The translations under genes and the position numbers were made by a program. This document shows, piece after piece, positions 3,288-54,523 of a stretch of DNA of 64,000 bases; positions within the stretch are counted from its first letter, which is position 1; every line of letters begins with the position of its first letter. The notes under the pieces are model-generated. The model was not told the DNA's origin. It worked only from the letters and a program-made list of their open reading frames with translations, and did no database searches. The DNA is taken from positions 435,212 to 499,211 of the forward strand of contig JBNGIO010006370.1 of NCBI GenBank assembly GCA_049999805.1, written 5' to 3'. Source of the DNA: Folioceros fuciformis (lineage: Eukaryota).

Positions 3288-4560
3288 TCAGGAGACATGT
3301 CCCTCGATGATGAGGGGTGCAGATGTGGAACATTGGCATCTTTTGTTCATTTCACAAAGTTTAACAAGGTCCTTCACCTTTGCATATGCATGCTGTCCCA
3401 TCTCCACATTGCTGTCCGATTTCCTCAGGCACCCACAAGAGTGTGCAAAACTGCAGCATGAGACGGTACAGGCCAGGCCTCTACCATGTTCCCGTACCTT
3501 GCATATATGTGTTTCAGACTGATTTGCTTCAAGCACTTCAGCTTGAAGACCATGTTTCCAGTGTGTGAATTGAATCTGCCTTTCCAGGGACAGAGCTGCT
3601 GCATTTGAGCATGCCTGAAGGAGATCTGCTGGAAGCCCTCTCTGTTCGAGTTGTTTATGAAGCTGCTCCCGCTCTTCCAAAGCTGAAACTTCCACATTTT
3701 CCACATGCCTGCAGGAGGCACACGACTGTCAGCAAATCAGGCGCAGGGATGCCTTGATCTTGCATAGCTGTGCGAAGATGGAGTGCTTCATGACGTATGC
3801 CCTGTCAGTAGGGTTGACCATGTCACAGCACTTTCAGACTGGCAAACACTCCCTGGACATCATCTAGGCTGCCATACTTTGCCTACACCTCACTGCCCTT
3901 CTTCAAAGGTGGGTAGCTTGAGCATGCCCACAGGAAGCATACATGTGTCGCTGAATCAGGTGCAGCTATTCCTTCTTGTTGCACAACACTGTAAGGACAA
4001 AGGGACCTACTGCAGGATTCATGCATTGCAGAGAGTGTCCTTCTATCACGGCATCCCCACATGTTTTCTATGGAGTCTGTCACACACACTCTGAGCAGCT
4101 TCCACACTGCAATGCTTTGCATCATGTCCTCCAAGGCACTGCAAACAAATAGAACGAGCTCAACGCCGTTGGCCAGCACATGAGCCTGCACCTTCTGCCC
4201 TTGTCTTCGAGTCATTCCTCCTCGCGCAAGCCTACAGAGCTGCTACTACCACTTGGCTATCGTCTTCACATTAGACCACATGGCGAATCTGATCGTCCAG
4301 CTGTATACTTGCCCATGCTTGATGAGCCCGGAAGTTATGTCAGGCCAAGGGAAGGAATGGGGTTGAGCACATCCGTCCCATGTGATCCTTGCCATCTGGC
4401 ACGAGAAGCATACATTTGCAGCGTGCGATTGCACAAGACCTTGTCCAACTCGCACCCGACCGTGGAAGTCGTCAGTGTGTCTGTACCACAAGTTTCAGAT
4501 CCTGAACAGCCTTCTGATCAGAGAGCTGCCTTTCCCGACACAGTTCGCTCATCATTACAG
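3288..4560 (-). pseudogene. Decayed PLS-class PPR gene
   Basis: Fragments in shifting frames (GCELDKVLCNRTLQMYASR; VAAL*ACARRNDSKT/GQKVQAHVLANGVELVLFV; *AKYGSLDDVQGVF; PDLLTVVCLLQAC; VSALEEREQLHKQLEQRGL) are colinear with the PPR at 48808-51348, with stops and frameshifts. Ends approximate. Confidence 0.75.
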
Positions 4561-4917: not shown

Positions 4918-7173
4918 ATGGCAGCGGCATGGCAAAAGGATCATGTGTGGACCCAACAAATCGGTGGGTTGGCAAGCAATGATCTGGGAAGTGCCAGCGG
5001 ACAGCCGACTGTGAGGTTCGGGCGGGTGCCAAACAGCGAAGCCTGGAGGTGCAGCTGTTTCGCCAGGAGCCCAGCACGTTTGATAGAGCCTTCGGGTGGG
5101 GAAGGATTTTGCAACGATGGTCGTGGGAAGGAGCAGGAGCAAGAGCGGCTGTGGAGACAGTTTTTTCTGGATCCTAGCCTGTGGTGGGATAACAGGCGGG
5201 ACAGGAAGAGCTACCGGTCGCCTGACTTCAGGCACAAGGGGTCCGGCGATGTGGTCTGGTTGAATAACCTGTACAAGCCCGCTTGGGTGGACGAGCAGCT
5301 GGCTGCTCTAGACTTAGTGCAAATGAGTGGTGGTGGTGGTAAGACTCGCCTGCTGCAGTGCAGCCTGAGCAAGCTGTGTGACGAGGGAGAGCTAACACAA
5401 GCTGTTGATGCTTTGACTGTTAAGGTACAAGAGGAAGGTGGTGTGCCCACTTCTCTTTTGTACAGTGTCCTCAAAAGGTGTGTGGCTGAGAAGAACCTCG
5501 CTGTGGGGCGTCGAGTTCACGACCTCACTGCCACCCTTGGCTACGATCGTAGTTCTTTCCTAGGGAACCATATCTTGCGCATGTATGCATGTGCAGGTAA
5601 AATGCAGGAGGCTATGGATGTGTTCACCAAGGTTCGCAAACCAAATGCCTTCATGTGGTTTTCCATCATCGCTGCATATGCTAAGCATGGGAAATCGAAG
5701 GAGGCTATACTGCTGTACCGTGAGATGCGTCGCTCAGGCGTGAAGGCGAATGGTCACATATTTGCAGCTGCCCTGCAAGCTTGTGCAGCTGCCGGCGACC
5801 TGGAATCTGGCAGGCAGGTGCACACTGATGTGTTGCAGAGTCGCGTTCCTCCTGACTCGTTTGTTTGCACCTGCCTGGTGGACATGTATGCTAAGTGTGG
5901 GGAGATGGGAGACGCACGCAGAGTCTTTGATTGTCTGACCCAGAAGGACGTGGTGACATGGACAGCCCTCATAGCTGGGTATGCGACGCGCGGACTCGGT
6001 GAAGAGGCCCTTTCTCTGTATGTCGAAATGGAACAAGAGGGTTTGGTTCTGGCTGACGTCGTCACATTTGCTTGCCTTCTCAAGGCTTGTGCAAGCGCGG
6101 GTGCCTTACAGGTGGGCAGGCAGCTGCATTCACACATTTTGGAAAGCGGACAGCTAGAAGGCAACATTGTGGTCGGCACCTGCCTGGTGGACATGTATGC
6201 GAAGTGCGGAGAACTGGAAGATGCACGCAGAGTTTTCGACACGCTAGGCTCCAAGGATGTGGTGACATGGAACGTCCTGATAGCTGGGTGTGGGACTTGT
6301 GATGAAGGCCACGAAGCAGTAGCTTGCTTTGAGGAGATGTTGCTCGCTGGTATTCAGCCCGACGATGTCACCTTCACTTGCCTTCTGGGAGCGTGCAGCC
6401 ACGAGGGACTAGTAAGCGAGGGTCGTAAGCACTTCTATTACATGACCGAACAACACAACGTGAAGCCCAGCATCGAGCACTACAACGCCATGATTGATCT
6501 TCTCGGGCGAGCAGGGCATCTGGAAGAGGCCGAGACGATGTTGCTATCATGTGAGAGCCGAAATGACGTGGTCGGGCTGACTTCGTTGCTCAATGCCTGC
6601 AGAAGTCATGGAGACGTAGACAGAGCCACACGGTGCTTTCAGAGCCTTGTCAGACTGGACCCTCGGCACGCCTCTGCTTACGTGCAAGTAGCGAACATGT
6701 TTGCAGATGCAGGCAGGTGGACGGATGCACACAGGATTGAAAGCATGAGAAAGTCAGCAGGAGCTCAGAAGAAACCTGCAGTAGCTGGCATTGAAGTAAA
6801 CAGGCAGGTGCATACCTTTGTGGTAGGAGAAATTCGTGACGATATTTGGGTGAAGGTAGACACCACGCATGCTCGGCTGAAGGAAGAAGGGGGCCACATA
6901 CCGCACACAAAGTTGGTGATGAAACCGCTTTCTGAGAAAGAGAAGCAGGATGAGCTTTGTGGGCATGCTGAGAAACTGGCCCTGGCGTTTGGTCTCCTGA
7001 ACACTCCAAGTGGCAAACCTCTGCTGGTAACAAAAAACCTACGAATGTGCAGTGACTGCCACAGCTCCACCAAGATACTGTCAAGGATTGAAAAGAGAGA
7101 CATCGTCGTAAGAGATGCGTACCGCGTGCACAGATTTGCAGCTGGGTCTTGCAGTTGTAAGGATCGCCCATGA
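4918..7173 (+). CDS. PLS-class PPR protein with E1-E2 and DYW:KP deaminase-like domain (C-terminus DRP) plus an N-terminal OSB-like PDF motif; intronless; candidate U-to-C editing factor
   Basis: First ATG at 4918; about 11 PLS motifs; KKPAVAGIEV, HAEKLA, CSDC, SCSCKDRP*. Motif WRQFFLDPSLWWDNRRDRKSYRSPDFRHKGSGDVVWL starts at ~5150. Confidence 0.93.
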   Translation: MAAAWQKDHVWTQQIGGLASNDLGSASGQPTVRFGRVPNSEAWRCSCFARSPARLIEPSGGEGFCNDGRGKEQEQERLWRQFFLDPSLWWDNRRDRKSYRSPDFRHKGSGDVVWLNNLYKPAWVDEQLAALDLVQMSGGGGKTRLLQCSLSKLCDEGELTQAVDALTVKVQEEGGVPTSLLYSVLKRCVAEKNLAVGRRVHDLTATLGYDRSSFLGNHILRMYACAGKMQEAMDVFTKVRKPNAFMWFSIIAAYAKHGKSKEAILLYREMRRSGVKANGHIFAAALQACAAAGDLESGRQVHTDVLQSRVPPDSFVCTCLVDMYAKCGEMGDARRVFDCLTQKDVVTWTALIAGYATRGLGEEALSLYVEMEQEGLVLADVVTFACLLKACASAGALQVGRQLHSHILESGQLEGNIVVGTCLVDMYAKCGELEDARRVFDTLGSKDVVTWNVLIAGCGTCDEGHEAVACFEEMLLAGIQPDDVTFTCLLGACSHEGLVSEGRKHFYYMTEQHNVKPSIEHYNAMIDLLGRAGHLEEAETMLLSCESRNDVVGLTSLLNACRSHGDVDRATRCFQSLVRLDPRHASAYVQVANMFADAGRWTDAHRIESMRKSAGAQKKPAVAGIEVNRQVHTFVVGEIRDDIWVKVDTTHARLKEEGGHIPHTKLVMKPLSEKEKQDELCGHAEKLALAFGLLNTPSGKPLLVTKNLRMCSDCHSSTKILSRIEKRDIVVRDAYRVHRFAAGSCSCKDRP

Positions 7174-34407: not shown

Positions 34408-36731
34408 CTAGGAGAGATATTCCCACCCACAAGGACGCGTGTCGGAACACACCTGGTCAGCACCAGTCTCAGGTTCGAGCGATTGACGAGGCTCCTGACT
34501 TGGTTTTGTCTCCACCTGCTGAGGCGTAGAACAGGATACGGGTCCGGCCGTGGGATCATGGCTGCCACTGCTCTGCGTTTCCCTCAACACCAGTGGCAGT
34601 TCACTTGCTGGAGCTTGACCATGCCTCACAGGCTCACCTGCACTGTCCAGAAGACCCAGATACTTAGCCACCTTCGCCTTCGTCCTGAATATTTGACTCC
34701 GACCATTCACAGGAGGAGAGTGGTAGCAAATGTGCATCCTCCCGCGATCATGTTTCCTGGGTACGACCTGTGCTGTCCACCCGTCTTCTAGAACCCCACC
34801 ACATTCCGCGACGTACACCTGCAGCTCCTCCACGGCCTTGAGGACTCTACTGCTACCCGAGGAGGGATTCGGAACGGGGCTGCCCGTTACCGCTTCTCGT
34901 TCTGCTTCTGGCGCTTGTCCTCGGCTGCTTTCCTTCAAAAGCCCAAGGTAGCGAGCCACCTGCACCCTGGATTGCAGCCTGTGTCCGGACGGTGACAAAT
35001 AATAAGGCTGCAGACATTTCTGCTGCTTCACCCTCATGCACCGAGCCCTCCATCCCTTCTCGAGGACGCCACTCCGATCAGTCACATACGCCTGCAGCTT
35101 CTTCATGGCTTGTTCACACCTCCTCTCGTAATCCTCCTGCGTATACTCCACGCCATCATCAGCACATGCAGTAGCGTCAGGGTCCACCGCGCTTTGGGCA
35201 ACATTCTTGAAAGCGCTCCTCAGTTCCATTCTTGGACTCTGCTGCTGGAAGTCCGACATGTGCTCATCCCTGAGGTGTCAGACAGAAGCGTTATGGTCAG
35301 AAGCAAGTTGCAGGGCTGATGCGTCACACTTGCCACAGGAGGCTGGGAGCCACTACTTGCCTTGCCACTTTGTGAGAGTCGTTTGCAGACTCCGGGGTGT
35401 TCATGCTTCTGCTCCTCTTCTGTTGAGACCCCTCTTCCTCATCTCCTTGCTGTGGAGTAGCAAGTCCCGAACTCCAAGTGTTGCTGCCTTTCCTTTTAAC
35501 AGGATACTTCTTCCGCGGCGAGTGTCGATAGACGGACGAAGTTTGAGCCACACCGGCCTTCACCCTCCCCAGCTGCCAAGTCCAGGTGCCCCCAACATCT
35601 GCACAGGAAGGGCATAACCACTCATCCAAACGACGAATCTCAGCTCTGTCCAAGGCCACACACGCCATGTGGTAGCTGGAGTCGCACCTGTCGCACAGTG
35701 CCGAAGTATAAGCTCCTTCGGGCTTCATACAGGACTTGCACAAGACAACATCGCCTGCTTGCCCCGGAAACGGCGCAGCGCCTCCGGGGAAATGCGCGGG
35801 TGCGCCCAGCAACTGCACGGCCAGTTCCAGCGTGGACAGCTGGGAAGTGGATCCATCCCTCTGAGTCGGCCCCACATCGTCAGATGCGGCTTCATCTCCC
35901 ACAGCATCCAAAGGCTCTCGCCTCTCGCCAGTCACAGCAACAGCAGCAGCAGCAGCGAAACCCGTGTATTCCAGCCCTCGCAAGTCTGCCGAAGCGATTT
36001 CCCTTCCATGTTGTCCGAGCTCGAAGCCGTCCCCACAGGCAGCCACTTCCTGCTGCTCATACACCTCTGCAACACCAGCAGTAGCCACAGGTGGAGCTTT
36101 CCCTTTTTCTCTCTCCCCGCCCTCCTTCACCTCATGCCCTTTTCCCTGCCCCTCCTCGCCCCGTCCCCTGTCCCGCTCGAGCTCGTCTGGCTCCTCATCC
36201 CGCTCGAACTCGTACTGCTCCCTATNNNNNNNNNNNNNNNNNNNNNNNNNNNNNNNNNNNNNNNNNNNNNNNNNNNNNNNNNNNNNNNNNNNNNNNNNNN
36301 NNNNNNNNNNNNNNNNNNNNNNNNNNNNNNNNNNNNNNNNNNNNNNNNNNNNNNNNNNNNNNNNNNNNNNNNNNNNNNNNNNNNNNNNNNNNNNNNNNNN
36401 NNNNNNNNNNNNNNNNNNNNNNNNNNNNNNNNNNNNNNNNNNNNNNNNNNNNNNNNNNNNNNNNNNNNNNNNNNNNNNNNNNNNNNNNNNNNNNNNNNNN
36501 NNNNNNNNNNNNNNNNNNNNNNNNNNNNNNNNNNNNNNNNNNNNNNNNNNNNNNNNNNNNNNNNNNNNNNNNNNNNNNNNNNNNNNNNNNNNNNNNNNNN
36601 NNNNNNNNNNNNNNNNNNNNNNNNNCCTCCTCCTCCTGCTTCACTGCCATTACCACCACGCTGACCCTGGGCAATGCGTGTTCCACCTGCCCACCTGCAG
36701 CAGCTCCCGCTTCCCCCTGCCCCTCGTCCAT
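34408..36731 (-). CDS. MBD9-related protein: acidic N-terminus, PHD finger, two tandem MBD-like domains (termini uncertain; spans an N-gap)
   Basis: PHD CKSC...CDRCDSSYHMAC...WLCPSC followed by WQLGRVK. Two repeats LQ(A/V)YVxxxxGVLExGW...Y(L/H)SP..G...VA(R/K)YLGLL resemble the MBD9 MBD. GC-AG intron 35270-35360 joins the exons in frame. Confidence 0.8.
36226..36625. other. Assembly gap (Ns) inside the acidic low-complexity exon
   Basis: Run of ~400 N flanked by Glu-rich coding sequence. Confidence 0.95.
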
Positions 36732-40194: not shown

Positions 40195-40597
40195 CCTGCC
40201 GGACCCGACTGCGGCAATGGTGAAGGCCCAGGCAGACATGCCGGGCCCGACTGCGGCAATGGTGAAGGCCCAGGCAGACATGCCGGGCCCGACTGCGGCA
40301 ATGGTGAAGGCCCAGGCAGACATGCCGGGCTCGACTGCGGCAATGGTGAAGGCCCAGGCAGACATGCCGGGCCCGACTGCGGCAATGGTGAAGGCCTAGG
40401 CAGACATGTTGGACCAAGGTCCAGGCAGACATGTTGCACCAAGGCCCAGGCAGACATGTTGGACCAANNNNNNNNNNCCAGGCAGACATGTTGCACCAAG
40501 GCCCAGGCAGACATGTTGGACCAAGGCCCAGGCAGACATGTTGGACCAAGGCCCAGGCAGACATGTTGGACCAAGGCCTAGGCAGACATGTTGGACC
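40195..40597. repeat. Composite minisatellite: ~5 x 42 bp followed by at least 7 x 25 bp, with a small N-gap
   Basis: 42-mer GGCCCAGGCAGACATGCCGGGCCCGACTGCGGCAATGGTGAA; 25-mer GGCCCAGGCAGACATGTTGGACCAA. Confidence 0.92.
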
Positions 40598-46335: not shown

Positions 46336-46550
46336 GTGGAACATCAAAAGGAATCATCGAGAGCCATTGCAGTATGGGACGCTGGCAGGTGTGAAATCAG
46401 AGGTAAAGGAGGCTGGACATTCTACTGGCTGCCAAAATCTGGTCCCTTTCACATGGTTCTCACACCATGTAACGCCTAGGTAACGTGTGCTGGCGGTCTA
46501 CGAACTATCGGCCAGCAGCTAGCATGATCCGCTGATTGCTGGTTGACAAG

Positions 46551-48539
46551 TTACCTGCTCCCTCTGTATTCGTCGCCGCAGTCACCAATGACTGTCAAAA
46601 GGTCCTTGCCTTTAGCTGTCACGGCTTCTATCCTCTGACGGTCCTCATCATCCAACTGCAGGCTAAAAATTGCCTGAGAGTCCTTGATGTGCTCCGAAAG
46701 ACCCAGCCTTACACCCACCATAGATCCCGCAACAGCAGGCTGCAAAGCAACAGACGATGTTTCTTTTCACATTTTTCTGTCCAGAAGCACGATGATATGG
46801 AGACAACAAGGCCCTCGAAATCCACAGGCTGTTGTGGTAAAGAGATTACCTGGTCAAGAATGTACCGGACAGCAACAGTAGCAATGGGAACTCCATGCTT
46901 GCTACCAATATCTTTGCAAGTGCGCAAAAGCTCTTGAAACAACTTCCAACCTCCCCAAGCATCCACCATCTGCTAATGCAAAGATGTGAACTTAATGCAA
47001 CCTCATCAGAGACACGTGGAAGTAATTGACCTGGTTAGGAAGAAACGCACTCTCTTGTACTTGTTCAAGGAGGGAGTGTCAAGAGCAGGTCCGGCAAACG
47101 GGATAGAAATGTTGGCATCCAGGAACTTGTCAGAGAGAAGACCACCCATCACAGTGCCATATCTGCGTGCATGAGGAGGTGTGGGTGTTGAAATCGGAAT
47201 GACCACCTAGTACATGAACTTGACTCTTATCTGCAGTTACGTACGTGATGAGCTTGACGCCAGTGACATTGCAGAGCTCTGCCATCGCCCTCTGCGGTCT
47301 CATGTCTACCAGCGAGTGTTGTACCTGCGGGATCAAGTGAACAGCAACGCACACCCAGTCAGAAGCATTTTCCTTGTCCAGTAGTACTCAGCCAAACGAG
47401 CAACAGTCGTCTGGACTCCACATCCTAACCTGATTGCTAACGATGGGAATGCCATTCTCCAGAATAATCTGCAGTCTTTTGGTGTCGAAGTTTGTCAAAG
47501 CCACCGTCTTGATTTTGCCTGCAAAGACAATTGTCAGCATAGTCACTGGATTGTAAGAGATGCCCATATACTCAGTGCAAGCAAATACTCGACGTGGAGG
47601 AGAAGAATAAGTCACCTTCCTCTTTGAGATCGGTCAGATGTTTTAATGCATCCAGGTATCCGGGATTTGCGTAGTCCCACCTGCAATGCCAGACACATGC
47701 CATGATTTGAGCATTCCACATTAAGCGTCCTCTGTAGACCTATGAGCGAGTCAGCAAACGTGATGCTGACAACAAGTACCAGTGAAATTGCAACATATCC
47801 AGGCACTGCACGTCCATACGTTTACGAGACCTATCGATATTGGCCTCCACGAGGTTCCTGGTCATCCTCCCTGGAGGAGGCACCCACTTAGTGAGCCTGT
47901 GAAACCAGAAGGATGGACGAAGTGTTGAAGAATCGCAGGTGAGAAAAGGCATGCATCCATTGAGGAACTTGGAGACGACAAGAGGGGACGATTTAAGAAA
48001 GGAGCATACCCCTGGACACTTGCTGCCACATCTTCTCCTCGCTCTCTTCGAACTCTGTTGATGAGGACTCCATACAGATCCTCAGCCGGGCCATCTGCTC
48101 TCTCAGAAGAATACGACCCCGATGATCAGGCACAGCATCTACAACGATGAATTCCAACACCGAGCCATGATCCACCAGGAGACATACAGTGATCTGCCAT
48201 GTCGAAAGTGGTGAAACCCGCATCCACGTGCCGGAGCATGGCATCTACAGCCTTTGGAGGATCGATTTTGCCCCAGCCCCCGCTTGTCTGCCACAGTCCA
48301 TTGATCACTCGGCATATTTCCAGCTTGTCCTCCCCGCTGCTCACAGCAATCCGCCTGGGGTCGACAGGAGCATTGGCTGGAAGAACCTCAGACGCTTGCT
48401 GCACCTGGCTCCTAGCTGCCAACCTTCTCATCCCCGCACAACGTGCTGAAGGAAAATTCACCTTCCACATCATCGTGCCCGACGTGGAGGAATGCAGCCA
48501 GGATAAGGGCACCGACGACCCACAAGAGCAGGAAGCCAT
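46551..48539 (-). CDS. Plastid-type aldo-keto reductase (At2g27680/RSP5-like subfamily), multi-exon
   Basis: ICRVINGLWQTSGGWG, AGFTTFDMADH, LTKWVP, LDMLQFHW, GKIKTVALTNFDT, YGTVMGGLLSDKFL, IGDCGDEYR. Confidence 0.9.
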
Positions 48540-48807
48540 CGTCTTCGATGTTGTTTGGAGCGGATAGCACAGAAAGGCTTCTAATAGATACACTGCCAGG
48601 AAGGCAGCGTGACGAGGCAAGCGACTGTGTGGACGGGTCTCGTCACACTAGACAGGATTTGCTCTCGCCTTTCTGACTACCACCATGGCGGTGCATTCGT
48701 ATCTTTCGATTATCCGTGTGCTTGCTGCTTTCCAGGCTATTAGGCAGAGACATCCTTCCTCGCCAGACTCAAACCTGTTGTGTGTGGCAAGTGACCAGTG
48801 GTTTCAT

Positions 48808-51348
48808 TTACAGTTCATTTTGCAAATTTGTGGGTGCAGGGTTTGAATGATTTGTCATGGAAGAAGTGGCGAGCTTTGGGACATACCCTGCGCTCTCCAA
48901 TACAGGAAGAAGCTGCTTCAGCATTGCATGTATAACGTCGGTTTCGGGGTGGCTTGTACCTCCAGCCTCAAAGGTATGCACCAGCCCCTGCATGTCTGTC
49001 CACCAGCTCTGGCCTGGCTGCTTCAATGCACCGATTTCCATTCTCTTTCCTTGCACCTCTTGTGCCTCTTCCTGCATCTGGGCACTCGTATATATGCTGG
49101 ACATCAAGACGTATGCTGCAGCATCTCTTTCGTCCAGCTTCAATGCCTCATGGAAAGCCTGGCGTCCCACCTCCACGTTGTTCCACTTCCGGCAGGCACC
49201 CAACAGGGCGTGCCAGACTGCATCATATGGCTTTACGGGCATTGTGCTCACCAACGATAGTGCCTCATCTACTTGGCCTGCACGACCCAGAAGGTCTGTC
49301 ATGCATGAAAAGTGTTCGGGAGTGGGAGTGACGCAGTAGTGATAGCTCATAGCCTCGAAGTACTCTCGCCCTGCGTTTACTAGACCCCCATGGCTACACA
49401 CTGTTAGAACATTGAGGAATGTGATGTCGTCCGGCTGTATGCCATCCTGTGTCATTCTGTGAAACAAATCAAAGACCACTGCACTGTCCCCTTGCCGGGT
49501 GTATCCTGCAATGAGAGCATTCCAACCTACGATGTCTCGTTCTGGCAATACATCAAACACCTGCTGTGCATCCAGCATACTCCCAGACTTTGCGTACATG
49601 TTTATTAGACTATTCAGTACAGTCACATCAGTTTGAAGCCCTTGTTCCTCAATCTGGGCGTGAAGCTGTCGCCCTAAATGCAAAGCTGCCACACCTGCGC
49701 AAGCTTGCAGGAGGCACACAAATGTCACAACAGACAAACGTGCAGCCATGCCTTCTTGGTGCATAGCACCGTAGAGACCGAGGGCTTCCTGACCCATGCC
49801 CATCTGGGAATATCCAGCTATAAGAGCTGTCCAGGTTACCACATCCTTTTGAGGAAGCCTGACAAACACGCTATGAGCCTCGTGTAGGCTACCGCACTTG
49901 GCATACATGTTCACCAGGCTGCAACCTACCACCACATCAAACTGAAGACCTCTGGCTCTAATCAGAGAATGAAGCTGCTTCCCTGTTTCCAAAGCCGGTG
50001 TACCAAGACTTGCACATGCCTGCAAGAGGCACACAAATGTCACGGAATCGGGTGCAACGAGGCCTCGTTCTTGCATGACACTGTACAGGTGAAGGGCTTC
50101 CTGACCCATGCCCTGCTGAGAATATCCTGCTATCAGGGCATTCCAGGTAATAACATCTTTCTCACCAAGTCCATCAAACACGTGCTGAGCATCCTGGAGG
50201 CTGCCACACTTGGCGTACATGTTCACCAGGCTGCAGCCTACAACTACATCAACACGAAGTCCTCGTTCTCCAATCAGTGCATGAAACTCCTTCCCCTTCT
50301 CCAAAGCTGAGACACCCAGGCTTGCACAGGCGTGCAGAAGGCCCGCAAACGTCACACAGTCAGGTGCAGTCATGCCCTCTTTTTGCATCACAGCGAAAAG
50401 ATGGAGAGCTTCTTGGCCCATGCCCTGCTTGGAATACGCTGTTATCATGGCATTCCATGTCACAACATCTTTTTGCCTCAGTCCCAAAAACACTCTTTCA
50501 GCATCGTCCAAGCTCCCACACTTCGCATACATGTCCACCAGGCAATTACCAACAAATAAATCCGACTCAACTCCACTGGCCACCACATCAGCATGCACCA
50601 ACTGCCCCGTTTTCAAATCTGCTCCTTTTGCACAAGCCTGCAGACCTGCCACAAAAACATGCGCATCCGGCTTCACACCTGATTTGCGCATTTGCTGGTA
50701 GAGTTGTATGGCCTCCTTAGTCCTTGCACGCTTAACCAACGCAGAGATCATGGAGGACCACATGAAGGCATCTGGTTCGGCAACCATGGTGAACACATCC
50801 ATCGCTTCTTGCAACCTGCCATGAGAAGCATACATCCTGAGGATGTGGTTGCCCAACAGGGTGTTGGACTCGTACCCCTTCTTCACGGTGAGGGCATGGA
50901 CACGGCGACCCAAAACCAGATCCCCTTTCACCACACATTCTTTGAGCACACTATAGAATCGAGTGTGGGAGACAGGACAGTCTGTGTCCACCAGAACGCC
51001 GAGAGCCTCAACGGCCTGCATGCGCTTCCGCTGCTGACATAGTCTAGTCACGGTCTCCTCTGTTGCGCTTCCTTCGGATCTTACAAGCCTACGAGAGCCC
51101 GAATCATTCACCCTTGCTGGATTGCGCATATACAACCAGAGGACGTTGTCAGGCTCCAGGTGGCGGGATGTCACGTTTGCAGGGTTGGTGCAATGGGTGT
51201 CGTTCTCTGCCCACGCCACCCGCCTAAAAGCCAGATGACCAGGAGGCGTTTCTGGAACATATACTTGTTGGATGCAGCAGAAATGTGTCCCCATTACATC
51301 GTGCTGGCCAGTGCGAGGGTAGTATTGTGTTACGCTCCAGGCAGCCAT
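48808..51348 (-). CDS. PLS-class PPR protein with E1-E2 and a truncated WW-type PG-box/E+ (no catalytic site); intronless
   Basis: ATG at 51348 (MAAWSV); about 17 PLS motifs; KQPGQSWWTD...SHP...GYVP, then stop before HxE. Confidence 0.9.
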   Translation of the reverse strand: MAAWSVTQYYPRTGQHDVMGTHFCCIQQVYVPETPPGHLAFRRVAWAENDTHCTNPANVTSRHLEPDNVLWLYMRNPARVNDSGSRRLVRSEGSATEETVTRLCQQRKRMQAVEALGVLVDTDCPVSHTRFYSVLKECVVKGDLVLGRRVHALTVKKGYESNTLLGNHILRMYASHGRLQEAMDVFTMVAEPDAFMWSSMISALVKRARTKEAIQLYQQMRKSGVKPDAHVFVAGLQACAKGADLKTGQLVHADVVASGVESDLFVGNCLVDMYAKCGSLDDAERVFLGLRQKDVVTWNAMITAYSKQGMGQEALHLFAVMQKEGMTAPDCVTFAGLLHACASLGVSALEKGKEFHALIGERGLRVDVVVGCSLVNMYAKCGSLQDAQHVFDGLGEKDVITWNALIAGYSQQGMGQEALHLYSVMQERGLVAPDSVTFVCLLQACASLGTPALETGKQLHSLIRARGLQFDVVVGCSLVNMYAKCGSLHEAHSVFVRLPQKDVVTWTALIAGYSQMGMGQEALGLYGAMHQEGMAARLSVVTFVCLLQACAGVAALHLGRQLHAQIEEQGLQTDVTVLNSLINMYAKSGSMLDAQQVFDVLPERDIVGWNALIAGYTRQGDSAVVFDLFHRMTQDGIQPDDITFLNVLTVCSHGGLVNAGREYFEAMSYHYCVTPTPEHFSCMTDLLGRAGQVDEALSLVSTMPVKPYDAVWHALLGACRKWNNVEVGRQAFHEALKLDERDAAAYVLMSSIYTSAQMQEEAQEVQGKRMEIGALKQPGQSWWTDMQGLVHTFEAGGTSHPETDVIHAMLKQLLPVLESAGYVPKLATSSMTNHSNPAPTNLQNEL

Positions 51349-52117
51349 GACAACTCTTAAAACATATGGAAAGGCCAGGAAGACTTGCCAGATCTGATGG
51401 GACACCGAGCTGCCCAGCAAATCAAACACCCCTTTTGTACTTTCTGAGCTACAAATCTGCTAGTACAACGAAAAATGTGCAGATGGTTCTGCCTGGAGCT
51501 GTCTCAAGCGCAAGTACTTAGGCTCATGAGATGAATTCGATTTGCATTGAACCTGGGAAACCTTGGACTCTGAGTGCCGGGGTACTGCTGTCAGTCTATG
51601 CAAGACTCTGACTGTAAATAGTTGTCCGCAACTCATTATCAAGTACTTCGCAAACGCTTTTGTCTACAATCCTTGCCCCTTCCTCAGCTAGATAATTCAA
51701 TGCTCAGTAATGGAGACAATGTCCAGTTTTTCAAATGTCCAGAGTTCGTGAATTTCTCACATCAGCCACCGAAGCTCTTGCCATCCTCATACAAGGAGGA
51801 GCTCAGAAGCCAGTTCTCTGGAAACAATGCCTCCATGGGCGTGTGGGACTTCCACCTAAACCCATCATTGAAGGTTTTGCCATCCTGCAGACATGGATGG
51901 TATCCCAAGCTTTTCTTGGAACTCACCATACTTGGGCCCTGGGGGTTTTGGAAGATTTCTTACGTCTGTCATTGGAGCTCGTGCAATTCCCACGCAGACA
52001 AAGAATCAATGATGTTCAGCATGCTGAGGTGCAGGGATGGCACGTAAGGATTTCGCGACTCTGCATGTAGCCGATGAGCCTGGACGCCCTCAAGGTACAT
52101 ATATTACCAAAACATTG

Positions 52118-54523
52118 TCAACGGCGATCCCCACATGAACAAGAGCCATCGACGAACCTATGCACTTGATGCGCATCTCTGACTATAATATGTCGCTTCT
52201 CAAGCCGTGACATGACCTTGGTGCTACTGTGGCAATCAGTGCACATCCGAAGATTTTTAGTGACGAGCAAAGTCGTGCCATCCGGTGTATTGAGCAGACC
52301 ATATGCCAAAGCCAGTTTTTCAGCATGTCCACAAAGGGCATCTTCTTTGTCCTGCTCAGACACCGCCTTGAGTACCAACTCAGTTCGTGGCACATGGCCA
52401 CCTTCCTCCGTCAACCTCGTGTTCACGCCCCTCAGCTTTGGCAATATGTCAGACCTTTCTTCTCCTACCGTGAACTCATGAACCTCATTCCTCACTTCAA
52501 TGGTGGCCCTTGCAGGCTTCTTCAAAGCACCTGCTGACTTCCGCAAGCTTTCAATCCTATCCACCTCATCCCAACTGCCTGCATTTGCATAGATGTTCCC
52601 CAACAGCACGTACGAACTTGCATTGTCAGGTTCCAGTTCCACGAGACGGTCAAAGCATCGCCTTCCACGCTCGACATCGCCATAGTTCTTGCAGGCACTC
52701 AACAAAGCTTTCCATGCCGAGACATCCTTCTCGAACGACATGGTATGCAAAAAACACTCTGCCTCATCCAGATGACCCGACCGGCCAAGAAGATCCACAA
52801 TGCAGCTGTAGTGGGAATCTGTGGGCAGTATCCCATGGTCCTCGATCATCCTCCTGAAATAGCGCTGGCCTTCATACACGAGGCCCGCACGACTGCAGGC
52901 CACAAAGAGACACAAAAAACTCGTCTCATCAGGCTGCAAACCCTGCTCAAGCATGTCCTGAAAACACAGGATGGCCATGCGACCGTCACCGTATTCAGCA
53001 TACCCATTGAGCATGGCTGTCCATGTGACCAGATTTCTGGAGGGCAGCCTGTCAAACACTTTCCGTGCATCCTCCAAGCTGCCACACTTGGAATACATGT
53101 CCACCAGGCAGCTGCCAATGGCCACGTTAGCTTCCAAGCCAGCTTGATGGATGCGGCCATGAAGCTGCTTCCCTTGGTGCAGAGCTCCTGCACTCGCACA
53201 TGCTTGAAGGAGGCACACGAAAGTGAGCTGGTCCGGCACAGTGGTGCCCTCGTGTTGCATGCATGCATACAAAGCCAGGGCTTGCCGAGCCAGACCCTGC
53301 TCCGTGTAGCCTGTGATCATGGCAGTCCATGTAACCACATCTTTGGAGGGCAAACTGTCAAACATTGTCCTCGCATCCTCCAAGCTCCCGCATCTCACAT
53401 ACATGGTGACCAGGCAGTTGGCCATGACTGCATCATCTTGAAACCCTCGTTCCCGTATCTGACAGTGCAGCTGCTTCCCCTGCTGCAGCGCTCCGACACT
53501 GGCGCATGCCTGGACGAGGCACACAAATGTGACATAGTCGGCTGGAGCCAAGCCCTCCTCATGCATCCGGTCATACAGAGCGAGGGCTTGAAGGCCCAGC
53601 CCCCGCCGACCATATCCTGCGATCATGGCATTCCACGTGGCCACGTTCCTTGTGGGCAAGCAGTCGAACACCTGACGGGCATCCTCCAAGCTGCCGCATT
53701 TGACATACATGTCCACCAAGCTGGTGCTCACAAACACATCGGCCCTGGCATCACCACTGGCCTGAATTTCAGCGTGCACATGTTTCCCCGAGACCAGGTC
53801 CTCTGCTGAGGCACACGCCTTAAGGACTGCGACGAAGATGTAATTGTCTGGCTTCAAGCCTGACTGGCGCATCGTTTCATACAGGGTGACAGCATGCCTG
53901 GGCTGTCCATGACGAACATGAGCCAGGATAATGGTACACCACATGTGCACATCGGGGATGGAGACCTTGTCGAAGGCGTGCACTGCATCCTCCAATTTGC
54001 CGAGAGAAGCATACATGGCGATGATGTGGTTGGCCAAGAAGGCGTCTGACTCGTGCCCACACTTGACCACAAGAGCATGAAGGCGCCTGGCGGACACGAG
54101 ATCCTTGTGAGCCATGCATTTCTTCAGAACAAGATAGAGAAGGGAGTGCGATAGATAACATACTGAATGCTCCTGCTGCTGCTGCTGCAGAAGGTCCAAA
54201 ACCTGACTCAGTCTCCCATGCTCACACCACCTGGTCACCCAGGCTTTAAGCGAAGCTGCGTCCCAGGCAGCAGCAGGAGCAGGGACCCTACCGTGTTGTG
54301 CATTGGGCGCTCTGTGCCTGAAGTCGGGATAGCATGAACTCTTGTCCAGGCCATTGTCCTCCCGCCTCCGAGAAGGCTTAGCCCAGAGCTCCTGCACTGA
54401 GACGGTCCCTCCTGCAGCGGCAGAAGCAGAAGCAGCAGGGCTTGACACGGAGAGGCGAAGCTGCTCCCTCGACAGCTGCTGCCGCGGTAGCAACAACGTG
54501 GACAGCTCCAGCAACGTCGCCAT
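52118..54523 (-). CDS. PLS-class PPR protein with DYW:KP domain (C-terminus DRR); intronless; candidate U-to-C editing factor
   Basis: Ser/Ala-rich transit-peptide-like N-terminus; about 14 PLS motifs; KKPARATIEV, HAEKLA, CTDC, SCSCGDRR*. Confidence 0.93.
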   Translation of the reverse strand: MATLLELSTLLLPRQQLSREQLRLSVSSPAASASAAAGGTVSVQELWAKPSRRREDNGLDKSSCYPDFRHRAPNAQHGRVPAPAAAWDAASLKAWVTRWCEHGRLSQVLDLLQQQQQEHSVCYLSHSLLYLVLKKCMAHKDLVSARRLHALVVKCGHESDAFLANHIIAMYASLGKLEDAVHAFDKVSIPDVHMWCTIILAHVRHGQPRHAVTLYETMRQSGLKPDNYIFVAVLKACASAEDLVSGKHVHAEIQASGDARADVFVSTSLVDMYVKCGSLEDARQVFDCLPTRNVATWNAMIAGYGRRGLGLQALALYDRMHEEGLAPADYVTFVCLVQACASVGALQQGKQLHCQIRERGFQDDAVMANCLVTMYVRCGSLEDARTMFDSLPSKDVVTWTAMITGYTEQGLARQALALYACMQHEGTTVPDQLTFVCLLQACASAGALHQGKQLHGRIHQAGLEANVAIGSCLVDMYSKCGSLEDARKVFDRLPSRNLVTWTAMLNGYAEYGDGRMAILCFQDMLEQGLQPDETSFLCLFVACSRAGLVYEGQRYFRRMIEDHGILPTDSHYSCIVDLLGRSGHLDEAECFLHTMSFEKDVSAWKALLSACKNYGDVERGRRCFDRLVELEPDNASSYVLLGNIYANAGSWDEVDRIESLRKSAGALKKPARATIEVRNEVHEFTVGEERSDILPKLRGVNTRLTEEGGHVPRTELVLKAVSEQDKEDALCGHAEKLALAYGLLNTPDGTTLLVTKNLRMCTDCHSSTKVMSRLEKRHIIVRDAHQVHRFVDGSCSCGDRR

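Follow-up and report, generated by a model that had tools for sequence, protein, structure and literature searches.

Apparent exchange of parts between RNA-editing factor families of opposite direction in an intact PLS-class PPR gene

The usual view of PPR editing factors is that they evolve when genes duplicate, undergo point changes or lose the DYW domain, and clusters of restorer-of-fertility-like, P-class PPR genes are said to diversify through unequal crossing-over and gene conversion. For the editing factors of angiosperms that belong to the E+ type, the E2 motif and the PG box complete the pocket of a separate DYW protein (PMC11897456, accessible text). DYW:WW is a hornwort subclade, and its consensus domain (RECODE-WW) edits C-to-U in human cells, according to the accessible part of PMC12684383. 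No description of an exchange between KP- and WW-type factors was found by full-text searches of the literature or within PMC13386178, a scope that excluded Gutmann et al. 2020 and Gerke et al. 2020. The gene analyzed here (the target) appears to be a patchwork of two related families of opposite editing direction, which suggests from sequence that such families trade parts; the trade seems to be old, and its effect on editing is putative.

The target was found as an intact ORF of the PLS class, 846 aa long from its ATG, within the window (the whole 64-kb stretch of DNA that was analyzed; Table 1). Tandem P-L-S motifs were matched by Pfam (PPR_2, 1.1e-78; PPR, 7.2e-69), and the layout was read from the sequence as a leader, a P-like motif, an L-S cap, four P-L-S triplets, P2-L2-S2-E1-E2 and the first ~46 aa of a DYW:WW domain. 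The E1/E2 motifs that follow P2-L2-S2 were matched by Pfam E_motif (PF20431, aa 722-782, E 1.2e-9). When aligned, the leader was a degenerate copy of W..F..P..WWDNR...PDF[RK]HK...W....P.WV, which is intact in KP4918, P0060, P0125 and P0245; this leader motif was matched by no Pfam family up to E 10, and the Atlas gave no usable match. The two DYW:KP genes of the window end in -DRP or -DRR, resembling the GRP variant of hornworts, which marks the organism as hornwort-like. No free-standing DYW gene was found within the 64-kb window.

Table 1. Positions in the window of the target gene, its parts and the two DYW:KP genes.
Feature	Residues (aa)	Position	Strand	Remarks
Target, whole ORF		48808-51348	-	846 codons + stop at 48808-48810; no intron required
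Leader	1-97	51058-51348	-	Degenerate motif copy (alignment; motif in text)
P-like motif + first L motif	98-160	50869-51057	-	Without KPa affinity
KPa-like tract	~161-281	50506-50868	-	First S, first P + L motifs, start of next S; left edge uncertain
Middle array	282-575	49624-50505	-	Three P-L-S triplets, mutual identity 57-68%
Last S1 motif	576-607	49528-49623	-	..GSMLDAQQVFD..; WW cassette start
P2-L2-S2-E1-E2	608-779	49012-49527	-	WW-type
PG/WW box + first ~46 DYW:WW residues	780-825	48874-49011	-	Ends AGYVPK
C-terminal tail	21 residues, then stop	48811-48873	-	Unrelated to DYW
KP52118, DYW:KP gene		52118-54523	-	KPc subclade; ends GDRR; 769 bp upstream of target, same strand
KP4918, DYW:KP gene		4918-7173	+	KPa subclade; ends KDRP; comparison gene of the first-pass annotation

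The target C-terminus reads ...KQPGQSWWTD..AGYVPK, is extended by the unrelated tail, and stops ~45 residues past the box. Using tblastn against WW DYW domains, only domain aa 1-53 were matched (57% identity to the beginnings of the P0122 and P0121 domains, over 51-53 aa). DYW_deaminase (PF14432) had no Pfam match in the target, and scored 1.8e-32 and 3.1e-34 in the two DYW:KP genes of the window. The deaminase core has been lost through a deletion, since a frameshifted core beyond the stop was ruled out by tblastn and by the three downstream frames, none of which held an HxE/CxxC remnant. The lack of HxE reported in the first-pass annotation was thereby confirmed.

That annotation had also called the N-terminus very close to that of KP4918 and the C-terminal region different from it. 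All N-terminal motifs quoted for the likeness were found in both proteins upon reading their sequences, and the first L and S motifs (aa 131-197) agree at 42 of 67 residues. The closeness was nonetheless overstated, as the N-terminal cap is common to all 47 cap-bearing KP and WW proteins that were compared (39-58% identity), and likeness to the KP4918 subclade in excess of this was found only in aa ~161-281. The difference at the other end stood, the C module (P2 to box) being only 34% identical to that of KP4918 and 30-39% identical to those of KP proteins. Four PPR genes of the source organism were compared, and comparators besides the three window genes were predicted proteins of other assemblies, sampled from mixed species.

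Cap-bearing WW proteins were represented by the target and nine database relatives, with a full DYW domain in three (P0122, P0127 and P0128). On the N-module tree (47 proteins), the nine other WW proteins were mixed with 10 KP proteins in one clade (98/88*), itself nested inside a KP backbone with starred nodes. On the C-module tree, all KP proteins fell in one clade (25/25; 100/100*) and all WW proteins, target included, in another (10/10; 100/99*). Identical KP subclades were recovered by both trees, which indicates that the N module holds real phylogenetic signal. When the 25 KP proteins were constrained to one clade on the N module, the likelihood was worse by a dlnL of 107 (p-AU 2.7e-7; constrained search run with a shortened stop rule, -nstop 40). 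The N tree and this rejection place the N-terminal array of the target within the KP radiation.

The change from KP-like to WW-like sequence was located at the last L1/S1 motif in the target, P0122, P0128 and P0107. From about the last S1 motif onward, scores are high for every WW protein, even one with an unrelated 'long-L' array, and drop for KP proteins. WW cassettes from cap and non-cap proteins, Selaginella P0134 among them, formed one clade, within which the two kinds interleave with weak support. Truncated WW relatives with the architecture of the target were found in other assemblies (P0088, P0125, P0049, P0099, P0107 and P0148). Because the join of array and cassette is common to the whole subfamily, intact DYW:WW members included, the pairing of a KP-type array with a WW end is old and shared; the cassette swap that had been claimed for this particular gene was not borne out as a private event. 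Separate phylogenies of the N-terminal motifs and the P2-to-box region had been predicted to disagree, and did so. Given this incongruence, the best reading of the sequences is that genes of the KP and WW types recombined within the repeat array. The location inside the array, as first proposed, was thus upheld; exchange of a C-terminal module was not, and the tract in the target resembles gene conversion instead.

At the level of the single gene, the target grouped with four KP proteins by its N module (98/90*) and was sister to P0088 and P0125 by its C module (100/97*). Identities to these WW proteins and to the KPa subclade (KP4918, P0097, P0060 and P0234) were compared along the array. Over aa 98-160, the target was 41-51% identical to P0088/P0125 and 37-44% to KPa, whose members are 55% identical to one another. 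Over the tract, it was 59-65% identical to KPa and 51% to P0088 (KPa vs KPa, 0.61), and over aa 282-575 it was 67% identical to P0088 and 50-52% to KPa. Outside the tract, the target is closest to P0088 and P0125, in its middle array as well as its C-terminus. Within the tract, P0088 and P0125 are both nearer to KP52118 (58%) than to KP4918 (50%), a trend reversed in the target (50% and 59%, respectively).

Region trees agreed with this pattern. The target was placed with KPa over aa 131-272 (98% UFBoot; region chosen once the sliding-window profile was known) and with P0088/P0125 over aa 297-402 (98%) and aa 500-607 (83%); aa 98-130, too short for a tree, were inspected only. In AU tests on the N module as defined a priori, a single clade of all WW proteins and the target gave p 0.0186 and a clade of the target, P0088 and P0125 gave p 0.0256; AU tests on aa 131-272 gave p 0.028 and 0.010. 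For the whole N module with 28 sequences under LG+G4, p was 0.053, because aa 112-124 pull the opposite way. The triplet maximum-chi-square test was run with three KPa references and returned aa 161-281 (or 167-278) as the best window, in which 22-27 of 32-37 informative sites favored KPa, as against 35-37 of 169-180 outside. This result was matched by 0-1 of 1000 permutations, which allow for the window search, and likewise in the test limited to the array.

The breakpoint tests asked for by the first-pass annotation hence supported a tract in all three triplets, with a weak left edge. The right-hand breakpoint was well supported. For the left edge, the inside/outside contrast within the N module reached significance only when P0088 served as reference, and did not with P0125 or the seven other WW proteins (p 0.03-0.67). 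A single crossover is compatible with such edges: everything from the start codon to ~aa 281 would have come from a KP4918-type gene and the rest from a WW gene, with the leader and the first L motif evolving fast, and the leader alignment does show clear affinity to neither group. This reading is nevertheless unlikely, as aa 98-160 fall below the level at which KPa members resemble one another and reach 52% to P0088, and per-site likelihoods at aa 112-124 favor the WW topology by ~19 units.

An account with no recombination at all, in which cap and array are an ancestral chassis and the conflicts arise from unequal rates, selection on RNA binding, misaligned repeats and sparse, mixed-species sampling, is slightly less probable still. 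The presence of the cap in every KP and WW protein compared is in keeping with it, as are the moderate AU values at the gene level (one of them 0.053), the lack of a high-identity DNA tract and the internal triplets, whose mutual likeness makes the repeat alignment delicate. Rate differences or selection on the array may cause the tract pattern. Against this account, the N and C trees share their KP subclades, KP monophyly on the N module was rejected, and the permutation test covers the window search. In addition, the per-site KPa signal is spread across aa 141-272, beyond a few code residues, and the 73% identity between P0088 and P0125 in the tract shows that these two do not evolve fast in that stretch.

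An assembly collapse of two PPR paralogues or a decaying pseudogene is very improbable. In favor of such readings, the region is rich in k-mers shared between paralogues, DNA-run contigs break inside the gene, summed depths are high, and the target has lost its DYW core and has a degenerate PDF-like leader. Against them, the 846-codon frame is open, the tract reaches no more than 59-65% identity with any KP protein sampled, which is not what a fresh assembly chimera would show, the 50868 edge is spanned without difference by a DNA contig of run X1 (possibly the assembly's own sample), and truncated WW relatives of like architecture occur in other assemblies. Run X3 (its RNA label is a guess) yielded a 3669-nt contig with pieces covering 48188-49020 and 46500-46739; the 668 contig letters that remain for 1448 genomic bases suggest splicing. 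The same run covers the intergenic 51340-52117, and is without cover at 50932-51339. Runs X4 and X5, from other organisms, held only short conserved PPR words.

At the DNA level, the target was 67.8% identical to KP4918 over 549 nt and at most ~75% identical per 35-codon block. Recent conversion between the PPR genes of the window was ruled out, the identity to either KP gene being no higher than ~75%, and no recent exchange was seen. Among the sampled genes, no donor with high nucleotide identity confined to the tract was found; together with the low DNA identity, this means that there is no direct trace of conversion. Identity at third codon positions between the target and KP4918 varied along the alignment and pointed to KP4918 no more than to KP52118, and was therefore left out as evidence. 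A wider protein search with the full target as query returned mostly long PPR proteins among its best 150; from 131 new proteins, two entered the top 25 for the middle array (~50% identity) and none did so for the tract.

Taken together, the target is probably, if by no great measure, a two-level mosaic: an intact nuclear PLS PPR gene of the E+ type in which a join at the level of the family is combined with a tract at the level of the gene. For the family, a PPR array from within the DYW:KP radiation would have been joined at the last L1/S1 to a DYW:WW cassette (S1-P2-L2-S2-E1-E2-box), the same type of cassette also occurring on the unrelated 'long-L' array type. For the gene, the ~120 residues near the N-terminus (aa ~161-281) would derive from the KP subclade of KP4918, and the candidate event that fits the tract best is old ectopic gene conversion, with a KPa-type paralogue outside the sample as donor. 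The most likely route in both cases would be non-allelic homologous recombination, with paralogous arrays paired in P-L-S triplet register. The first interpretation of this locus is in sum partly supported.

In the resulting protein, binding of an organellar transcript would fall to the array, and presentation of the target C to E1-E2 and the PG/WW box. Since the deaminase core is deleted, a DYW protein would have to supply catalysis in trans, the situation known from angiosperm E+ proteins; such an E+-type function can be inferred only, by analogy. A broader view, held somewhat tentatively, is that in hornwort-type genomes the WW and KP editing-factor genes form one recombining pool, in which the join founded the subfamily and array tracts kept moving between the classes, aa 161-281 of the target being an example. 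Recombination of this kind might also turn over forward and reverse editors.

Natural KP/WW chimeras would show that array and editing cassette are exchangeable in vivo, with a junction at the last L1/S1, and that recognition tracts cross from one editing direction to the other. If this is true, enzymes that edit in opposite directions draw on a common, reshuffled set of RNA-recognition modules, with a bearing on the origin of new specificities in hyper-editing lineages. For protein engineers, it would offer naturally tested junctions for the fusion of arrays to C-to-U or U-to-C cassettes.

Several known systems resemble parts of the target. As in CRR4, which works with DYW1, and SLO2/CLB19, with DYW2 (PMC11897456, accessible text), there is a PLS array, E1-E2 and a PG-box piece and no HxE(x)nCxxC core, the features of the E+ subgroup. 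It differs from these angiosperm factors by its WW-type box, its hornwort-like organism, its KP-derived array and the absence of a free-standing DYW gene from the window. With hornwort DYW:WW domains it has in common the PGxSWWTD box, a WW-type P2-L2-S2-E1-E2 region and the grouping with WW proteins, which assign it to the DYW:WW lineage, although only ~46 of the ~137 residues of a complete consensus domain are kept; the box is not limited to hornworts, as Selaginella P0134 carries PGKSWWTD. With the DYW:KP (GRP-type) candidate U-to-C factors of hornworts it shares the N-terminal cap and the compact P-L-S array, and its aa 161-281 group inside the KP4918 subclade of these factors. Unlike them, it has no KPAxAxIE box, KP-type E motifs, DYW:KP domain or GRP/DRH-type end. 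Finally, paralogous arrays recombining in repeat register, among genes that lie close together, recall the restorer-of-fertility-like clusters; those genes, however, are of the P class and carry no editing domains, and the present case concerns PLS genes with opposite editing modules.

Four PLS-class PPR genes were identified by open reading frames and Pfam in the window, which is plant nuclear DNA (see table). The target, a WW-type gene, is the tandem neighbour of KP52118, a DYW:KP gene 769 bp upstream on the same strand. It encodes a leader, one P-like motif, an L-S cap, four P-L-S triplets, P2-L2-S2-E1-E2 and the box KQPGQSWWTD, after which about 45 more DYW-like residues run to AGYVPK and a 21-residue unrelated tail precedes the stop. 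PPR and E motifs were found in it by Pfam, with no match to a DYW deaminase, and tblastn of WW and KP DYW domains against the target matched only WW-domain residues 1-53. No DYW-like sequence was detected downstream in any frame, and tblastn with the same domains recovered no free-standing DYW gene within the window. Open frame, Pfam and tblastn bear out the first-pass annotation, which had described KP-like first motifs, a WW box and no HxE core; the first L and S motifs are identical at 42 of 67 residues to those of KP4918, a further DYW:KP gene. The three internal triplets of the target share 57-68% mutual identity and are 38-44% identical to its first triplet, which suggests, from sequence, triplet duplication or intragenic homogenisation and fits arrays pairing and recombining in register.

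Features of the window, in window coordinates
Feature	Position	Strand	Description
PPR-like fragment	3688-3993	-	3 stops
KP4918	4918-7173	+	DYW:KP gene, C-terminal end KDRP
KP4918 leader motif	5150-5330	+	aa ~80-138
Assembly gap	36226-36625		run of N
Assembly gap	40468-40477		run of N
Matches before E44136	from 43923		tblastn
E44136	44136-46118	+	PPR gene truncated after E2-like end
X3 contig	46500-49020	-	3669 nt
Target	48808-51348	-	WW-type PPR gene, open frame of 846 codons
Target internal triplets	49624-50460	-	aa 297-607
Target KPa-like tract	50506-50868		aa ~161-281
Target leader	51058-51348	-	
KP52118	52118-54523	-	DYW:KP gene, C-terminal end GDRR

E44136 has 'long-L' motifs, ends ..KAGMTWIEHEKEVHTF.. 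without a deaminase core and clusters with PGQSWIE-type truncated proteins; tblastn matches upstream of its ATG indicate that it may start earlier. The fragment immediately upstream of KP4918 (37% by tblastn over 134 aa) probably represents the remnant of a decayed PPR gene. Beyond the target stop, after ~190 bp, come the exons of an aldo/keto-reductase-like gene (Pfam PF00248, E 7.9e-6). A contig from X3, a sequencing run tentatively labelled RNA, spans the target 3' coding end, the stop and the ~190-bp spacer and extends into the reductase-like gene, beyond which about 780 bases seem to be skipped; it would represent either a reductase transcript starting inside the PPR gene or read-through. 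N-terminal of the PPR array, a conserved leader motif (LW..FF.DP..WWDNR..K....PDF[RK]HK.....WL.....P.WVD.QLA.LD) is present in KP (KP4918, P0060, P0234, P0245) and WW (P0125, P0088) proteins and degenerate in the target and KP52118; it had no Pfam match at E 10 and no Atlas match. It may be similar to the 'PDF motif' of plant OSB proteins, a 50-aa element that binds ssDNA. The existence of that OSB motif is confirmed in PMC6963530.

Relatives (predicted proteins from other assemblies, P numbers) were collected by word-indexed searches with target aa 115-300 (959 matches among 1710 candidates; best 120 of 959 used), target aa 645-846 (1128 among 2033; best 120 of 1128 used) and KP4918 aa 540-751 (80 among 729). 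The matches listed comprised at least 305 proteins when combined; no window protein has an identical counterpart among the 305, and the organism's own proteome is therefore absent from the collection. Among the matches listed, the family defined by the WW box has two forms, one with a full DYW domain (P0121, P0122, P0127, P0128, P0130 and Selaginella P0134) and one truncated at varying points after the box (P0088, P0125, P0126, P0129, P0132, P0135, P0137, P0148, P0206, P0049, P0099, P0107); 9 WW proteins have a KP-type N-terminal cap and compact array, and 8 others an unrelated array of long L motifs. In PMC12684383, DYW:WW is the name of a hornwort subclade, and its consensus carries out C-to-U editing. 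The box of P0134 from Selaginella moellendorffii (PGKSWWTD) is of WW type, so that the type is not confined to hornworts. P0127 (WW-cap) and P0251 (KP), each with a longest contig of 20337 bases, may come from another pair of adjoining WW and KP genes.

Separate trees were built for the N module (aa 98-296) and C module (aa 608-825) from proteins that also have the C module and whose best BLAST match to the target N module covered at least 150 residues with a score of 150 bits or more. This left 48 of 309, and 47 after removal of the synthetic construct P0131: 25 hornwort-type KP (7 assigned by eye from the box alignment), 10 fern/lycophyte-type KP, 9 WW plus the target, 1 PG and 1 other. Across these 47, target identity left the classes unseparated in the N module (44-54% to WW vs 39-58% to KP) and separated them in the C module (50-61% vs 30-39%). 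The C tree resolved KP as a single clade (100/100, starred), WW plus target as another (100/99, starred) and P0088+P0125 as sister of the target (100/97, starred). The N tree kept the same KP backbone and subclades, with the WW arrays nested within the KP crown: nine WW arrays joined 10 KP proteins including KP52118 (KPc group; 98/88, starred), and the target joined KP4918, P0097, P0060 and P0234 (KPa group; 98/90, starred). The separate phylogenies proposed in the first-pass annotation are thus incongruent, placing the target with KPa by its N part and with WW by its C part. For the N module, forcing the 25 KP proteins into one clade cost dlnL 107 (p-AU 2.7e-7; constrained search shortened); p-AU was 0.0186 with all WW and the target together and 0.0256 with target+P0088+P0125. 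When non-cap WW proteins were added, all WW cassettes formed one clade with P0134 as sister to the hornwort-type cassettes, and cap and non-cap cassettes interleaved with weak support.

The join was mapped by 50-residue sliding comparison of the target with five groups. Over aa 91-150 there was no preference or a slight P0088/P0125 lean; KPa was best over aa ~150-260 (aa 161-210: KPa 159, KPc 130, P0088/P0125 122, other WW 127), and P0088/P0125 over aa 261-580, with KP lower and low scores for non-cap WW. At the last S1 motif (from aa ~575-590 on), every WW scored high and KP dropped. P0122, P0128 and P0107 likewise change from KP to WW at the last L1/S1 motif, so 'KP-type array plus WW cassette' is a shared, old architecture. 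An apparent KP preference over the deaminase core in that second comparison is an artefact, because among the 8 non-cap WW proteins only 2 possess the core.

Within the N module, per-site likelihoods (28 sequences) gave an advantage of about 19 units to the P0088/P0125 topology at aa 112-124 and of about 55 units to the KPa topology at aa 141-272, and were neutral at aa 273-296; this internal conflict accounts for the whole-module AU of 0.053 under LG+G4 (28 sequences). In a tree of aa 131-272, a region picked after the sliding-window profile was seen, the target grouped with the four KPa proteins (98% UFBoot), and AU rejected a clade of target+P0088+P0125 (dlnL 37.3, p 0.028) as well as one uniting the target with all WW (dlnL 41.0, p 0.010). 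The target grouped with P0088 (98%) and then P0125 (98%) at aa 297-402, and with P0088+P0125 (83%) at aa 500-607. Breakpoints were sought by triplet maximum-chi-square with each KPa reference (1000 permutations) in an end-to-end alignment of the target, P0088, P0073, P0060 and P0097, whose arrays are of equal length (306-311 residues). The KPa-rich stretch was aa 161-281 (or 167-278), with 22-27 of 32-37 informative sites favouring KPa inside vs 35-37 of 169-180 outside, a signal reached by 0-1 of 1000 permutations and kept with the array alone (aa 98-575). Target identity to P0088 and to KPa was 0.52 and 0.43-0.45 at aa 98-160, 0.51 and 0.60-0.65 at aa 161-281 (KPa vs KPa, 0.61), 0.67 and 0.50-0.52 at aa 282-575, and 0.62 and 0.38-0.40 at aa 576-800. 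Over the tract P0088 and P0125 are 73% identical; P0088 is 58% identical to KP52118 vs 50% to KP4918, and the target 50% vs 59%, so the likeness is not simply one that this genome's KP genes have in common. Support for the left edge is weak, the N-module-only contrast being significant solely with P0088 as reference, and a single crossover near aa 281 may therefore have produced the pattern instead.

The interpretation in the first-pass annotation is partly supported: the data are best explained by recombination inside the array, between genes of KP type and of WW type. It would comprise an old join of a KP-type array to a WW cassette, founding the subfamily, and a separate KPa-type tract of ~120 residues in the target gene. 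Target DNA is 67.8% identical to KP4918 over 549 nt (no 35-codon block above 75%) and 64-67% to KP52118, and no recent exchange among these genes of the window is visible in the alignments; at this divergence, either the exchange would be old or its donor an unsampled paralogue. The exchange within the array proposed in the first-pass annotation is retained, but as two separate events, neither of them a recent swap of the editing module. No published account of such KP/WW exchange was found in a literature search whose scope lay outside Gutmann et al. 2020 and Gerke et al. 2020.

The C-terminal ends of the window's KP genes are of the -GRP/-DRP type, a variant described for hornworts in PMC9478123. 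By architecture, the target is an E+ protein. In angiosperms, DYW1 or DYW2 is recruited by E+ proteins, which complete the deaminase pocket with their E2 and PG box (PMC11897456); the target would likewise recruit a DYW protein, its E2 and box completing the pocket.
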